Below are positions 58,497 to 61,929 of a DNA stretch of 64,000 nt, piece after piece. This DNA is from Candidatus Liptonbacteria bacterium (GTDB lineage: Bacteria > Patescibacteriota > Minisyncoccia > UBA6257 > 2-01-FULL-56-20): NCBI GenBank assembly GCA_023244895.1, contig JAHFLL010000001.1, forward strand, positions 489,802 through 553,801. Direction: 5' to 3'. Each line of letters opens with the position of its first letter. Position 1 is the first letter of the stretch. The notes below the pieces were generated by a model, which searched no databases, was not told where the DNA came from, and was given only the letters and a program-made list of their open reading frames with translations. Position numbers and translations under genes: made by a program.

Positions 58497-59066
58497 TTAC
58501 TTAGACTTCTTGCTTCTGATTTTGACTATTTCTAAAAGTCCTCCGCGCGCGCCCGGCACCGCGCCACGCAACATAAGCAAACCCTTCTCCGCATCCACTT
58601 CCGCAACCATTAAATTACCAACCGTAACCCGTTCCGTGCCCATGTGGCCGGCCATGCGCCTGCCCGGGACAACTCTCTGAAAAGCGGTGCTTCCGATAGA
58701 ACCCGGCGCGCGGTGCCGATTCTTCTGACCATGAGTCTTGGGGCCTCCCGCGAAACCATGGCGCTTTACCACGCCCTGGAATCCGCGACCCTTGGTTAGA
58801 CCGGCGACGCGCACAATGTCTCCCGCCGAAAAAATATCAACCTTAACCTCGTCTCCAACTTTAAACTCACCCAGAGCCTCCACTCCGCGCGGGCGGAATT
58901 CTTTAGCTGTTTTGCCTAATTTGATTTGAACCGCCGCGTAGCCGTCTTTTTCTTTGGTACGCAAAATCGCCACCTTGTTGGCGGGTACAGAAATGATCGT
59001 GACCGGCAGGATTTTTTCACCTTGCCAGAGCTGATCCATCTTTACTTTTCTACCCAAGATCATCAT
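58497..59066 (-). CDS. rplC: 50S ribosomal protein L3
   Basis: LGRKVKMDQLWQGEKILPVTII...TKGRGFQGVVKRHGF. Confidence 0.9.
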   Translation of the reverse strand: MMILGRKVKMDQLWQGEKILPVTIISVPANKVAILRTKEKDGYAAVQIKLGKTAKEFRPRGVEALGEFKVGDEVKVDIFSAGDIVRVAGLTKGRGFQGVVKRHGFAGGPKTHGQKNRHRAPGSIGSTAFQRVVPGRRMAGHMGTERVTVGNLMVAEVDAEKGLLMLRGAVPGARGGLLEIVKIRSKKSK

Positions 59067-59381
59067 ATTTTTACTATTAAAAAATCGCCTAAGGCGCAGC
59101 CCGGCGATTCCGGTCCGTCCTTGTGAAGCGCCCCCTTATGTTTCGTCTCTCTGGGCACCCATTAAAGCGACCGGGATATGATAGTTTAAAAATAGGTTTG
59201 TGTCAACCCCGTAGCGACCCGTGCAGTTTTTTCTGTTTTGACATCTTGAATATAAAAATTTATGCGGTAGATAATAATGTAAATAACGAACATAGACCTA
59301 CTGCCGGGTCTAGTACGGGGTCAATATTTAACTGGGAATAAACGACGAGCGGCTCCGGGGATGACCCACGGAGCCGCTGAC

Positions 59382-59693
59382 TCATGCCGCTCGCTGAAGA
59401 CGTGTCCGCAGAAGCCTATACGCGTCCAGCTCCTTGTAGTACGGACTGTCCTCTTCTCCTGGCCGGGTTGCTCTCTCCCCTTTCACTTGGCAAATCGGGA
59501 TGCCACACAGGACATCCTTGGGAGCACCGTCCACCACGACCGTTATCGTGGCTTCGACGGCTCCAACCAAACACGCCATAGCTTCCAGATCGCTATCGCT
59601 AGCTACCTGGACAAGCTCGTTCCGTCGCTGGACGAACTCCGCTTCCGAGATCTTGCCTTGCCCACGCGAGAGCAGTAGGTCAAACCAGTTCAT
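59382..59693 (-). CDS. Hypothetical small protein inserted between rpsJ and rplC
   Basis: The ORF is preceded by AGGAGG 5 nt before MNWFDLLLSRGQGK... It encodes about 104 aa. The track lists a longer form, 59382..59738. The sequence looks more GC-rich than its flanks by eye. Confidence 0.35.
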   Translation of the reverse strand: MNWFDLLLSRGQGKISEAEFVQRRNELVQVASDSDLEAMACLVGAVEATITVVVDGAPKDVLCGIPICQVKGERATRPGEEDSPYYKELDAYRLLRTRLQRAA

Positions 59694-59751
59694 GGGACCT
59701 CCTACCGGGCAGATTAGCACCCGGGAACTTTTTTGCAAATCAGAAAAACTT

Positions 59752-59773
59752 AAAACCCCCTTACGGGGGCTTT
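59752..59773 (-). terminator. Terminator-like GC hairpin immediately downstream of rpsJ
   Basis: aaaaccccc-ttac-gggggcttt. On the minus strand it reads GCCCCCGTAAGGGGGTTTTAAGTTTTT. Confidence 0.4.
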
Positions 59774-59805
59774 AAGCGTCTAACTTCTAGATTCTATCTT
59801 CTGCC

Positions 59806-60138
59806 CTATACTATCTTTATTTCAATATCCACCCCTGCTGGCAGATTCAGATTAGACAGAGACTCAATGATTTTCTGATTGGGATTCAGGATATCTATCA
59901 GGCGCTTGTGCACCCTAAGCTCAAACTGTTCCCTGGAATTCTTGTCAATAAAAGTAGAGCGGTTGACCGTGTACTTTTTGACTTCGGTCGGCAAGGGAAT
60001 CGGACCCACAACCTTGGCATCGTTTCTTTCCGCGGTTTCAATAATCTGACGCGCGGAATTATCGATGAGCTTATGGTCGTAAGCGCGAATCCTTAGCCTT
60101 ATCTTTTGAGGAACTTCCTGATCCTTCTTCTTAACCAT
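59806..60138 (-). CDS. rpsJ: 30S ribosomal protein S10
   Basis: [26 protein letters not shown]...[20 protein letters not shown]. Confidence 0.9.
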
Positions 60139-61338
60139 TTACTTGTTGATTTTAGTGACTACGCCCGCGCCTACAGTCTTGCCACCTTCACGGATGGCGA
60201 AGCGCTGCTTCTCTTCCAGCGCGACCGGAGTGATGAGCTTGACGCCCAACTTCACGGTATCACCCGGCATAACCATCTCGGTGCCTTCCGGTAGGAAGAC
60301 CTCGCCGGTCACGTCCGTGGTGCGGATGTAGAATTGCGGCTTATAGCCTTTAAAGAACGGGGTATGTCGACCGCCTTCCTCCTTGGAAAGGACGTATACT
60401 TCACAGTCAAACTCGGCGTGAGGCGTAACGGATCCCGGCTTAGCCAAGACCTGACCGCGCTCCACATCTTCTTTCTTCAAGCCACGCAGAAGGGCGCCGA
60501 CGTTGTCGCCAGCCTGACCTTCGTCCAAAAGCTTGTTGAACATTTCAATACCGGTTACGACGGTTTTCGCAGTTGGGCGCAAACCTACGATTTCAATTTC
60601 CTCGTTAACCTTAACTCTGCCGCGCTCCACGCGACCAGTCACAACGGTGCCACGTCCTTCAATCGAGAAGATATCTTCAATCGGCATCAGGAACGGCTTC
60701 TCTAGTTCGCGAACCGGGTCCGGGATGTAGGTGTCCAAAGCGGTCATCAAATCAATGATGCACTTTGCATCCGGATCATCCGCAGACTTGGCATTTAAGG
60801 CCTTGAGCGCGGAACCACGGATAACCGGGGCGTTGTCGCCGTCAAACTCATATTTCTTAAGCAACTCACGAACCTCGGTCTCTACTAAGTCAATCAGTTC
60901 CGGGTCGTCCACCATATCGCACTTATTAAGGAACACAATCATATTCGGAACACCTACCTGGTGAGCCAAGAGCACGTGCTCGCGAGTCTGAGGCATAGGA
61001 CCATCCGTCGCGGCAACCACCAAAATCGCACCGTCCATCTGAGCGGCGCCAGTAATCATGTTCTTGATGTAGTCCGCGTGTCCTGGAGCATCGATGTGCG
61101 CATAGTGGCGCTTGTCGGACTCATACTCGGAGTGATGCAAAGCAATCGTGATTCCACGTGCTTTTTCTTCCGGCGCATTGTCAATCTGGTCTACGCCTTC
61201 CGACTTCTTGGCTAAACCCCTCATGAATTGAACGCTCGTAATAGCCGCAGTCAAAGTCGTTTTGCCATGGTCAACGTGACCGATAGTACCAACATTTACG
61301 TGCGGCTTGCTTCTGCTAAACTTTTCTTTTTCTGCCAT
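60139..61338 (-). CDS. tuf: Elongation factor Tu
   Basis: [18 protein letters not shown] and NKCD G-motifs are present. It is 399 aa. Confidence 0.95.
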
Positions 61339-61906: not shown

Positions 61907-61929
61907 GTCTCTATTTTAGCACACGAGTA

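Follow-up and report, generated by a model that had tools for sequence, protein, structure and literature searches.

The ribosomal protein genes running from S10 through L3 and beyond are regarded as a syntenic, invariant block, which serves in concatenated 16-protein phylogenies and as an anchor for binning. In a genome of Candidatus Liptonbacteria (contig JAHFLL010000001.1, of which a stretch of 64,000 nucleotides was analysed and is called the window here), rpsJ and rplC are separated by a 739-bp spacer (59067-59805) holding a strong terminator, an SD-preceded open reading frame (ORF) of 103 aa, a hairpin of 9-13 bp and about 315 nt of non-coding DNA. What is this spacer, and does it split an operon, as a preliminary description of the window had proposed? 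The distance given there, about 740 bp, agrees with our measurement, and both neighbours were confirmed by Pfam. Our answer, to which we assign a probability of about 0.7, is that the spacer is the boundary of two transcription units and holds an exchangeable accessory cassette, and that a leader RNA at its rplC side would attenuate the rplC operon. The features of the locus, where all genes lie on the minus strand, are collected in Table 1.

Table 1. Features at the rpsJ-rplC junction, in the direction of transcription (positions in the window).
Feature	Position	Strand	Basis
rpsJ (S10, 110 aa)	59806..60138	-	Pfam Ribosomal_S10, E 2.6e-34
Predicted intrinsic terminator closing the tuf-rpsJ unit	59740..59777	-	13-pair hairpin (59777-59748) and U-run; terminator scan
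Cassette 5' control region (putative)	59694..59738	-	-35-like, extended -10-like, palindrome, SD
103-aa orphan ORF, cassette cargo	59382..59693	-	ATG at 59693, stop codon ends 59382
Cassette-end hairpin AGCGGCUCCG-loop-CGGAGCCGCU and tail CGUCGUUUAUU	59337..59378	-	folding and recurrence in relatives
113-nt AT-rich insert interrupting an older -35 box	59207..59319	-	comparison with relatives
Predicted rplC operon promoter (TTGACA, 17 nt, TATCAT)	59178..59206	-	11/12 consensus positions
Conserved rplC leader RNA	59078..59181	-	covariance model R1, 78.8 bits, E 5.7e-15
rplC (L3, 189 aa)	58497..59066	-	Pfam Ribosomal_L3; heads the downstream ribosomal operon

Neighbours at the locus include fusA, a bPH_2-domain gene, tuf, rpsJ, rplC and rplD. 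Because the stop codon of tuf abuts the start of rpsJ, we take rpsJ as the last gene of a fusA-tuf-rpsJ unit. The hairpin with a T tract already noticed behind rpsJ folds with -23.7 kcal/mol (z = -5.5 against shuffles), carries the core GCCCCC-GUAA-GGGGG at 59770-59756 followed by UUUUAAGUUUUU, and is kept in five relatives (L006, L009, L010, L012 and L014). On the rplC side, all of 32 related loci have a TTGACA-like box, a spacing of 16-18 nt and TAnnnT, with a constant distance to the leader motif. The first unit (fusA, the bPH_2-domain gene, tuf and rpsJ) would stop at the strong terminator, and the second (rplC, rplD and so on) would begin at its own sigma-70-type promoter, with the leader RNA opening the transcript. 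The idea of a split operon has to be given up, as relatives with an empty site already possess the terminator after rpsJ and, before rplC, a promoter and a leader dedicated to it. In cyanobacteria, plastids and archaea, rps10 is attached to the str operon (tuf-rps10), apart from the rpl3 operon, and the window resembles this arrangement in having rpsJ directly after tuf, then a terminator, then rplC with a promoter of its own; it differs in belonging to a CPR lineage and in that the junction is additionally a variable insertion site.

This variability is seen among the closest relatives. The S10 protein of the window is also encoded on contigs of relatives, 17 contigs carrying the same protein, and among the loci with identical S10 the rpsJ DNA differs by 5-10%, all of it synonymous. 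At four such loci (L006, L009, L013 and L015) the same terminator leads directly to the rplC promoter with no ORF between them; the window and L007 have one ORF between rpsJ and rplC; four others (L008, L010, L011 and L012) have at least two to four other ORFs; and on the rplC-side contigs L002-L005 the genes are different again. Module order also varies between relatives. A two-gene form (66-aa and 105-aa genes in L010) is confined to L008, L010 and L011, and in L010 the 66-aa coiled-coil ORF sits between the control block and the homologue of the window ORF, with a repeated SD block flanking it. Most of the related contigs are short and broken at the locus, so that the full islands referred to here are pieced together from different samples. 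The insert is not common to the relatives, and the earlier suspicion that foreign-looking DNA had been inserted stands: four loci with identical S10 are empty, others hold different genes, and the ORF is an outlier in composition. Since relatives with identical S10 are empty or hold other orphans at this site, and since unrelated genes precede the same hairpin, we regard the ORF as an exchangeable, moron-like cassette. Exchange would have proceeded by homologous recombination, both within the conserved flanks and at repeated joints, and the module of the window probably goes back to a larger L010/L004-type island that was reduced through recombination between repeats, namely the hairpin and the SD blocks.

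The spacer had also been presented as exceptional, and for this organism it is not. In a set of 80 related Paceibacterota species, 48 rpsJ-rplC gaps could be measured; the shortest is 78 bp, the longest exceeds 2479 bp and the median is 758 bp, and only three are 100 bp or less, so that 739 bp is typical of the clade. In a further 21 species no rpsJ lies within 3 kb. When 184 proteins (175 gap ORFs and nine cassette proteins) were clustered, 127 remained singletons, and Pfam matches were obtained for only about 5 of the 35 gap ORFs of at least 100 aa. Transposases of the rve type and reverse transcriptases are present upstream of rplC in L139, L215, L171 and L213. We rejected a clade-wide GC rule for gap genes, some species having gap ORFs richer in GC than the flanks and others having poorer ones. 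Metagenome assemblies repeatedly break at the S10/L3 junction (L002 and L012 belong to one MAG, L004 and L008 to one sample), and because of these breaks S10 and L3 are often found on different contigs.

Oliveira, Touchon and Rocha reportedly described, in 2017, hotspots of horizontal gene transfer flanked by core genes in bacterial chromosomes. The gap is like them in that two core genes bracket differing accessory genes, mostly orphans, accompanied in some species by transposases and reverse transcriptases, and unlike the usual hotspots in that it lies inside the S10/str ribosomal supercluster of genome-reduced CPR bacteria (about 0.84 Mb). We propose that the stretch from terminator to promoter offers transcriptionally neutral ground between extremely conserved genes and that, in this Paceibacterota clade, it would act as a hotspot for the accumulation and exchange of accessory DNA. 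The S10/L3 junction is one of the most variable places in this clade, and the locus tells where strain-specific orphan genes are kept in a bacterium whose genome has about 0.84 Mb, providing a concrete site for the study of gene flux in CPR bacteria. As a side observation, a 348-aa protein encoded in the neighbourhood matches only itself in a set of 5.8 billion proteins, and one homologue of 33% identity lies upstream of rplC in L185.

The ORF itself was confirmed as SD-preceded (GGAGG at 59702-59698) and has 103 aa. Its GC content, earlier judged by eye to be higher than that of the surroundings, is 0.579 (GC3 0.631), against means of 0.480 (sd 0.031) and 0.526 (sd 0.043) for GC and GC3 in the 70 other window ORFs of at least 100 aa; it is the highest GC among 71 (z = 3.2), a composition unlike that of the flanks, and the cassette ORFs of this species group all fall within 0.55-0.63. 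Two homologues are 51-53% identical to it, with substitutions biased to third codon positions and dN/dS of 0.13-0.25, and by this comparison the ORF is a real gene under purifying selection. In searches covering billions of public proteins the family consists of three members, all at the rpsJ-rplC locus. An exhaustive phmmer search over 1.84 billion representative proteins returned only two entries (P0013 and P0014), which we rejected as relatives because they are tandem-repeat proteins whose scores are sums of many weak repeats. Sequence profile searches of the ORF gave no match in Pfam, NCBIfam, PADLOC, PHROGs or PDB, no Pfam family at E <= 1 was found for either the ORF or its L010 homologue, and PHROGs gave no meaningful phage-family match. 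The N-terminal GKISEAEFxxRRNEL suggested a SHOCT domain (PF09851), an identity that was rejected since the Pfam model gives no match at E <= 1. In an AF2 model (pLDDT 69.6, with residues 43-50 and 61-76 below 50) three helices form the N-terminal part of the protein and a long helix its C-terminal part, along with a beta hairpin. The protein is predicted to be soluble and mainly helical with one beta hairpin.

Upstream of the gene lies a block of about 45 nt containing a -35-like TTGCAA (59738-59733), an extended -10-like TGcTAATCT (59719-59711), a palindrome CCGGG-N10-CCCGG (59724-59705) and the SD sequence. It occurs once in the window and recurs in L010 and L012 ahead of the homologous module, whose first gene differs there; we infer that it acts as the cassette's own promoter. 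Phage morons, as Hendrix and colleagues are said to have defined them, are autonomous promoter-gene-terminator units between conserved genes. The cassette is similar in that a single small gene lies between a promoter-like block and a hairpin, its composition is unlike that of its neighbours, it is absent at the same junction in close relatives, and the conserved co-oriented neighbours are uninterrupted. It apparently has a promoter and a terminator of its own: the motifs are conserved, but both assignments are uncertain because the -10 hexamer (TAATCT) is weak and the block was not called by a consensus promoter scan, and because the U-tract after the hairpin is interrupted. The cassette differs from morons in residing in a cellular chromosome, within a ribosomal protein cluster, and in that several modules have one common hairpin joint. 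A search of IMG/VR brought up no phage relatives of the ORF family, of the 348-aa and SPFH-like neighbours, or of the control block and the hairpin plus tail. The module in the window is a minimal one, made up of a promoter-like/operator/SD block, the GC-rich orphan gene and the hairpin, and may be an autonomous unit expressed on its own, leaving ribosomal gene expression undisturbed.

The same block admits another reading, in which the ORF encodes a small autoregulating DNA-binding or antitoxin-like protein, the remnant of a larger selfish module, that binds CCGGG-N10-CCCGG. Such a role would suit the position of the palindrome over the -10 region of the promoter-like block of its own gene and its retention in the window and L012 (one arm is altered in L010), as well as the two-gene layout of L010 under the same control block, which is typical of addiction modules, and the predicted fold. 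The confidence of that fold is moderate, however, Foldseek with the AF2 model found nothing at E < 0.7 in PDB or BFVD, and no HTH, toxin-antitoxin or defence profile matches the ORF. Folded as RNA, the palindrome is no more stable than shuffled sequence (z = -0.1), which speaks neither for nor against a DNA operator. We consider this reading unlikely, though worth bearing in mind. A type II toxin-antitoxin module was rejected for the window, which has a single gene and no toxin-antitoxin or defence profile match.

At the other end of the cassette, the 9-bp stem reported near 59348-59380 was located at 59378-59348 (AGCGGCUCC...GGAGCCGCU) and extends to 13 pairs (-28.4 kcal/mol, z = -6.0). No chance match to this stem is expected in the window, which has one copy, and related islands have at most two to three. 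The same stem and tail stand behind at least five unrelated ORFs, in L002, L003, L004/L005, L010 and, twice, in L012; the 10-bp base of the stem is invariant, the upper stem covaries (GGG/CCC, GGA/UCC, GAGGAU/AUCCUC) and the tail CGTCGTTT is conserved. The sequence common with the rplC-side contigs starts exactly at this hairpin. We consider it a probable terminator, perhaps a leaky one, and a recurrent joint between modules. A separate observation is that an identical stem behind unrelated genes, with covariation limited to its top, exceeds what a plain terminator requires, and it could be a site of sequence-specific recombination. In JGI metagenomes a strict hairpin pattern matched the known L005 contig and one high-GC contig (L217), the latter rejected as fortuitous, being an ordinary terminator behind an unrelated gene. 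The strict search of viral contigs gave no match, and a loose pattern was uninformative there, with at least 120 chance hits. A 13-nt inverted repeat (59228-59240/59736-59748) was considered as the ends of an element and dropped, being low-complexity, T/A-rich and unsupported by relatives.

Recurrent hairpins behind unrelated genes bring integrons to mind. Integron attC sites are 55-141 nt long with paired R''-L''/L'-R' boxes (RYYYAAC ... GTTRRRY), the cassettes are generally promoterless, and integrase-less attC clusters still have many attC sites. The locus is like an integron in that its genes are small, mostly orphans, and follow one another in the same orientation at a single site, with a hairpin element behind each whose structure is kept and whose sequence is partly variable. 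The hairpin might then be the site for a site-specific recombinase that inserts, excises and shuffles cassettes between rpsJ and rplC, which would fit the recurrence and the invariant stem base described above, as would the differences in module order, if exchange takes place at the hairpin joints. Unlike an integron, the locus has no attI and no integrase or other recombinase gene nearby; the hairpin, with about 30 nt and an 11-nt tail, is too short and lacks the R''/L''/L'/R' boxes, a single GTTAAAT about 20 nt downstream having no RYYYAAC partner upstream; and the modules bear their own promoter-like blocks. The single copy in the window, to which the JGI metagenomes add one probably fortuitous match beyond L005 and the viral contigs none, also argues against it, and homologous recombination between repeats of 30-45 nt gives the same pattern. 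An integron-like platform is in our estimation quite improbable. A broader variant, that the gap is a dedicated cassette-capture site whose hairpin joint is used by an enzyme or by single-strand uptake and recombination, appears to us rather a long shot; if true, it would be an integron-like acquisition system in genome-reduced episymbionts, with conserved ribosomal flanks carrying cassettes across species.

The exchangeable cassette has further to be weighed against a functional member of the ribosomal cluster, i.e., a lineage-specific ribosomal or ribosome-associated protein placed here by co-regulation. In favour of such a protein, the ORF is small, co-oriented and under purifying selection inside the most conserved ribosomal cluster. 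The four relatives with identical S10 do without it, however, and further relatives have other genes instead; it is isolated by the strong terminator and the rplC promoter; it has an outlying composition, and the divergence of its alleles goes far beyond that of the flanks, with saturated dS against flanks differing by only 5-7%; and no homologue was found in the 80 related species, nor among the 1.84 billion representative proteins. We regard a ribosomal role as very improbable. Least of all do we credit an assembly chimera or a non-coding remnant with a chance reading frame, which the breaks of metagenome assemblies at the locus in many samples might suggest: the insert is not a single-contig artefact, because a Logan contig (L001/L007) is 100% identical to the region across 2333 bp and the 103-aa product is also recorded from an 840-kb NCBI/ENA contig, and the substitution pattern of the two homologues is that of a coding gene.

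The last part of the spacer, some 315 nt of structured non-coding DNA in the preliminary description, is structured as claimed, and it is not a single entity: four elements make it up, namely the hairpin of the cassette, an indel of 113 nt, the promoter of rplC and a leader RNA that is conserved. The rplC-proximal half is, as far as its sequence tells, the rplC operon promoter with this leader. Covariance model R1 has a single match in the window and recognizes 35 loci, one match per locus and in all 35 directly 5' of rplC, with none elsewhere in the 564 kb searched; the matches cover 30 of the 80 related species, and a second type of leader, unrelated to this one, is seen in the clade's other half. 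In the leader, P1 (59170-59164 with 59121-59117) pairs (R)UC.CUU with AAG.GA(Y) and holds an internal loop of UAAU opposite (U)UCAC, P2 is a variable hairpin (59160-59128), and a terminator AAUCGCC...GGCGAUU with U6 follows (59109-59079); this terminator and its U-run are present in all matches of the model. Over 34 distinct sequences, 95.7% of cells are paired and 10 pairs are changed on both sides, a value reached by 0 of 500 shuffles, slid controls remaining at or below 54% paired, and the single-sequence MFE structure reproduces the covariance model. An antiterminator candidate, in the window CCGG (59113-59110) with CCGG (59104-59101), overlaps P1 on its 3' strand; 80% of its helix is paired, one pair shows CG/UA/UG covariation and two pairs are changed on both sides, a moderate support given that the alignment had been fitted to the terminator structure.

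Rfam 15 gave no match at E <= 1 in the window between 58000 and 61500, nor at the leader positions of five related loci (L197, L184, L148, L173 and L004), and we propose the leader as a previously undescribed RNA, absent from Rfam, and a candidate regulator of the L3 operon. The structured E. coli S10 leader (L4-mediated attenuation) and other r-protein leaders likewise have covarying helices and an intrinsic terminator, and like other r-protein leaders this one combines a covariation-supported structure with a consistent position in the 5' UTR. It is unlike the E. coli S10 leader in being placed before rplC rather than rpsJ and in having no Rfam 15 match, and its range, as sampled, is the Paceibacterota/Liptonbacteria-like clade. 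A structured leader with a terminator before rplC-rplD implies feedback attenuation by a protein encoded in the operon, and the leader is probably an attenuator that senses an r-protein. The P1/internal-loop/P2 module would be followed by mutually exclusive antiterminator and terminator hairpins; an r-protein of the operon in excess, for which L4 is the prior candidate and L3 is the product of the nearest gene, would bind the P1/P2 module, lock P1 and block the antiterminator, whereupon the terminator would abort transcription ahead of rplC. A search of the leader loops for rRNA mimicry, against E. coli 23S and 16S, the window having no rRNA of its own, gave one match of 8/9 at 23S position 2179, which was rejected since about 0.3 such matches are expected by chance. 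To our knowledge almost no cis-regulatory RNAs are described in this phylum, to which the rplC leader adds a new, covariation-supported candidate for r-protein feedback regulation, with a predicted terminator/antiterminator design that makes it directly testable in vitro. A candidate L4 leader has also been reported upstream of rplC-rplD-rplW-rplB in Archaeoglobi (PMC7247131).

Finally, the 113-nt insert is present in the window and in L004/L005, at 82% identity, and absent from L002, L003 and L009; the 64-kb window and the related loci retrieved contain no second copy other than the orthologous L004/L005 site. A direct repeat TTGAC stands on either side of the insert (59324-59320 and 59206-59202), and its ends are inverted (CCCGTA...TACGGG), which gives it both the target-site duplication and the terminal inverted repeats of a miniature inverted-repeat element.

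The interval between rpsJ and rplC in the window is an accessory-gene hotspot that carries a moron-like cassette together with a new candidate leader for a ribosomal-protein operon. The S10 protein encoded here is HEY4526166.1 (Candidatus Paceibacterota, CPR, from a MAG; contig of 840,672 bp), the spacer measures 739 bp, and all relevant genes lie on the minus strand. Every element named in a preliminary description of the spacer was found in its place, and the layout is summarized in the table.

Features of the rpsJ-rplC region in the window and, in the last three lines, in contigs or loci from relatives or metagenomes (L numbers)
Feature	Coordinates	Strand	Remarks
tuf	60139-61338	-	adjoins rpsJ directly
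rpsJ	59806-60138	-	
Strong intrinsic terminator	59777-59740	-	-23.7 kcal/mol, z = -5.5
45-nt control block	59738-59694	-	TTGCAA, 16 nt, TGcTAATCT, palindrome CCGGG-N10-CCCGG, GGAGG
103-aa ORF	59693-59382	-	ATG start
Hairpin AGCGGCUCCG...CGGAGCCGCU with tail CGUCGUUUAUU	59378-59337	-	-28.4 kcal/mol, z = -6.0
AT-rich 113-nt piece	59319-59207	-	between TTGAC repeats
Near-consensus promoter	59206-59178	-	TTGACA-17-TATCAT
Structured 104-nt leader	59181-59078	-	terminator-like hairpin and U6 at its end, just 5' of rplC
rplC	start 59066	-	
Palindromes, rplC 5' region	L003 155-245; L009 3440-3490		
Palindromes, leader terminator to rplC	L165, L190, L208; L149, L154, L191, L203, L215		
Orphan family of ~102-108 aa	L177 2451-2774; L191 2350-2658; L197 2338-2664		

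The 103-aa ORF is a genuine gene, an orphan of foreign appearance. The impression that it is richer in GC than its surroundings is borne out by its computed composition, since its GC of 0.579 is the highest among the 71 ORFs of at least 100 aa in the window (mean 0.480, sd 0.031, z = 3.2) and its GC3 is 0.631 against 0.526 for those ORFs. When 5.8 billion proteins were searched by word index, the only match was the ORF itself; a profile search recovered two further family members (P0011 and P0012, 51-53% identity), both encoded at the same place, 3' of rpsJ, in L012 and in L008/L010/L011. Exhaustive comparison by HMMER with 1.84 billion representatives yielded just two more proteins, both of tandem repeats and judged spurious. 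Pairwise dN/dS within the family is 0.13-0.25 and the changes cluster at third positions, indicating that the frame is under purifying selection. Profile libraries, a PDB sequence search and a fold search gave nothing on function, and an AF2 model of moderate quality (pLDDT 69.6) shows three helices at the N terminus, one beta hairpin and a long helix at the C terminus. Our best guess, a weak one, is that the protein might be an autoregulator or the remnant of an addiction module, given that a palindrome overlies the promoter-like block and that L010 has a two-gene form. Another small orphan family (KPFHEAIV...ANHDAI...HIAAEKAR), unrelated to this ORF, directly follows rpsJ in three species.

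Exactly the same S10 protein is encoded on 17 contigs, ten of which were examined. Their rpsJ DNA differs from that of the window by 5-10% and every change is synonymous, so that they represent related populations or species and not clones. In four of them (L006, L009, L013 and L015) the spacer holds no ORF and measures 313-340 bp, the same terminator being followed within ~10 nt by CCCAG...TTGACAC, the rplC promoter. The window and L007, a Logan contig 100% identical to it over 2333 bp, have one ORF; L012 has a 102-aa ORF and the homologue, of 109 aa; L008, L010 and L011 have ORFs of 101 and 66 aa, the homologue, of 105 aa, and the beginning of a 348-aa ORF. Still other genes stand at the ends of the contigs that begin on the rplC side (L002-L005). 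The genes of the cassette proteins are all GC-rich (0.55-0.63 vs ~0.48 for the host), and profile searches assigned none of these proteins to a family. The suspicion of foreign origin thus holds, the insert being a GC outlier that is absent from or replaced in relatives with an identical S10. Furthermore, synonymous sites are saturated between alleles of the 103-aa ORF while rpsJ beside it differs by only 5-7%, which favours exchange with a wider pool of alleles over divergence in step with the flanks. In the relatives with an empty site (L009 3358-3520, also L006, L013 and L015), AAAGATAGTATAAGG occurs ~60 nt past the rpsJ stop and agrees at 14 of 15 positions with the rpsJ 3' end as found in L010; it looks like the relic of a displaced gene end, of the kind left by elements that integrate in the 3' end of a gene and supply a new one.

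The island is built of modules. At least five unrelated ORFs have this hairpin and tail behind them, with two copies in L012; the 10-bp stem base is invariant and the upper stem shows compensation (GGG/CCC, GGA/UCC, GAGGAU/AUCCUC). Sequence common to the window and the rplC-side contigs starts exactly at this hairpin, and the 45-nt control block is near-identical in the window, L010 and L012 despite the different gene behind it, as in L010, where it is followed by the 66-aa ORF bracketed by repeated CCGATAGGAGGTGC. Because hairpin joint and control block recur around differing genes, the window looks like a larger island of the L010/L004 type reduced to a minimum, the 101-aa, 66-aa and 348-aa genes of which would have been lost by recombination between repeated joints. 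An unrelated high-GC metagenome contig (L217 314-352) has the same 10-nt stem arms and an CGTCGTTT tail as the terminator behind an unrelated gene, a match we consider fortuitous since terminator hairpins are so numerous.

An integron cassette is a poor comparison: the hairpin does not have attC architecture, the locus does not supply an integrase, and the cassette carries a promoter-like block instead of being promoterless. The unit, with its promoter-like block, gene and hairpin, its deviant composition and its presence or absence among relatives, resembles what phage biologists call a moron; however, it sits on the chromosome, and viral-sequence searches found no phage connection.

The preliminary description also suggested that an insertion here would split a highly conserved operon, and on this point the clade speaks against it. 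A scan for L3 with one genome per GTDB species gave 80 loci of the Liptonbacteria/Paceibacterota type (L3 identity 58-83%). In 48 of them rpsJ lies within 3 kb 5' of rplC, with gaps of 78-2479 bp (three of <=100 bp, 14 of 101-350 bp, 16 of 351-1000 bp and 15 of >1 kb); 21 more loci with at least 2.9 kb of upstream sequence have no rpsJ there. As the median gap is 758 bp, 739 bp is typical of the clade: the two genes are already apart throughout, the ORF is not the cause, and the window's arrangement is not unusual. When 175 gap ORFs and nine cassette proteins were clustered, 127 of the 184 had no relative in the set, and ~5 of the 35 gap ORFs of at least 100 aa match Pfam (methyltransferase, TSCPD, AdoMet_dc, DUF4116 and a kinase-like protein). 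Directly upstream of rplC there is an rve-type transposase in L139 and L215 and a reverse transcriptase in L171 and L213. In L185, a distant species (L3 ~63% identical), a 33%-identical homologue of the 348-aa protein of the L010/L004 island directly precedes the rplC leader (1662-2765), the same gene family recurring at this hotspot in different species. With core genes on both sides, the junction acts as a hotspot. One relative has a tRNA gene upstream of rplC (L173 1918-1989).

The non-coding half of the spacer is the rplC operon's own control region. What had been described as structured non-coding sequence is indeed structured, and it holds the rplC promoter and a conserved leader RNA. 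Alignment of close relatives revealed a conserved core and a replaceable hairpin domain; this domain is short in the window, L002 and L009, and L003 and L004/L005 have a long, different one. The motif was found by pattern at 34 loci, and a 28-sequence seed gave the consensus: helix P1, in which (R)UC.CUU pairs with AAG.GA(Y); an internal loop formed by UAAU and, opposite it, (U)UCAC; then helix P2 and the terminator. The covariance model (R1) matches 35 loci, six of them outside the seed, once per locus and always immediately 5' of rplC, and its single match in the 64-kb window scores 78.8 bits. In its alignment 95.7% of cells are paired and 10 of the 20 pairs are changed on both sides (81 cells); none of 500 shuffles attains these values, and sliding the partners lowers pairing to 41-54%. 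The single-sequence MFE of the window leader also gives P1, P2 and the terminator. At all 32 loci examined a TTGACA-like box, 16-18 nt and TAnnnT lie at a fixed distance upstream, which places the motif at the 5' end of the transcript.

The P1 3' strand (GAYAGCC) and the 5' portion of the terminator loop (GGCUR) can form a second helix, 80% paired, its closing pair being CG in 15, UA in 8 and UG in 6; the counterpart in the window is CCGG (59113-59110) with CCGG (59104-59101). It is a moderately supported candidate antiterminator that would compete with both P1 and the terminator. Nothing in Rfam 15 matches the leader, and in a published survey of ribosomal leaders Archaeoglobi alone have a listed L4 candidate upstream of rplC (PMC7247131). 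We read the leader as a putative transcription attenuator sensing a ribosomal protein encoded by the operon. About half of the related species are without it and have other conserved sequences ~170 nt upstream of rplC, namely ...CUAAGGUUUCCUCGGAAGUUUUAUGC...CGGAAGACG... and/or ...ACUCCGG...CCGGAGUU...UACUGGAUUCCG...GGACGAUCAAGAAAAUG (L139, L140, L143, L146, L147, L150, L153, L158, L167, L170, L174, L180, L183, L186-L188 and L202), which look like a second, unrelated leader type. Long imperfect palindromes of short repeats, either (ACGCAGA)n...(UCUGCGU)n or rich in CGAAU/AUUCG, recur in many species at differing points of the rplC 5' region, within P2 or between terminator and start codon; CPR genomes may carry them as small palindromic mobile elements.

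We propose that transcription from the str/tuf side would end after rpsJ and the rplC operon would restart at its own promoter under leader control, leaving DNA between terminator and promoter that could be extended without cost. Because the flanking genes are so conserved (identical S10 protein, near-identical L3), homologous recombination could carry the intervening DNA from one population into another. Accessory orphan genes that bring their own expression signals would build up and reshuffle at the repeated joints, the window being the smallest such configuration.

Further upstream in the str operon, a gene whose 132-aa product has a bacterial PH domain (bPH_2, PF03703; 61508-61906, minus strand) stands between fusA and tuf, a position kept in L006, L008, L009 and L010. 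It is 23 nt from fusA in the window (61907-61929), while in L008 two extra GC-rich orphan ORFs of 64 aa (GC 0.585) and 169 aa (GC 0.604) lie between them (1144-2137); this interval is a second variable slot of the same supercluster. The tuf stop abuts the rpsJ start (TAA ATG) in the window (60136-60141) and in L012, whereas L006 (4289-4358), L008, L009, L010 (1755-1824) and L011 keep a 70-nt spacer, which has thus been lost in part of the group, and this loss implies translational coupling.
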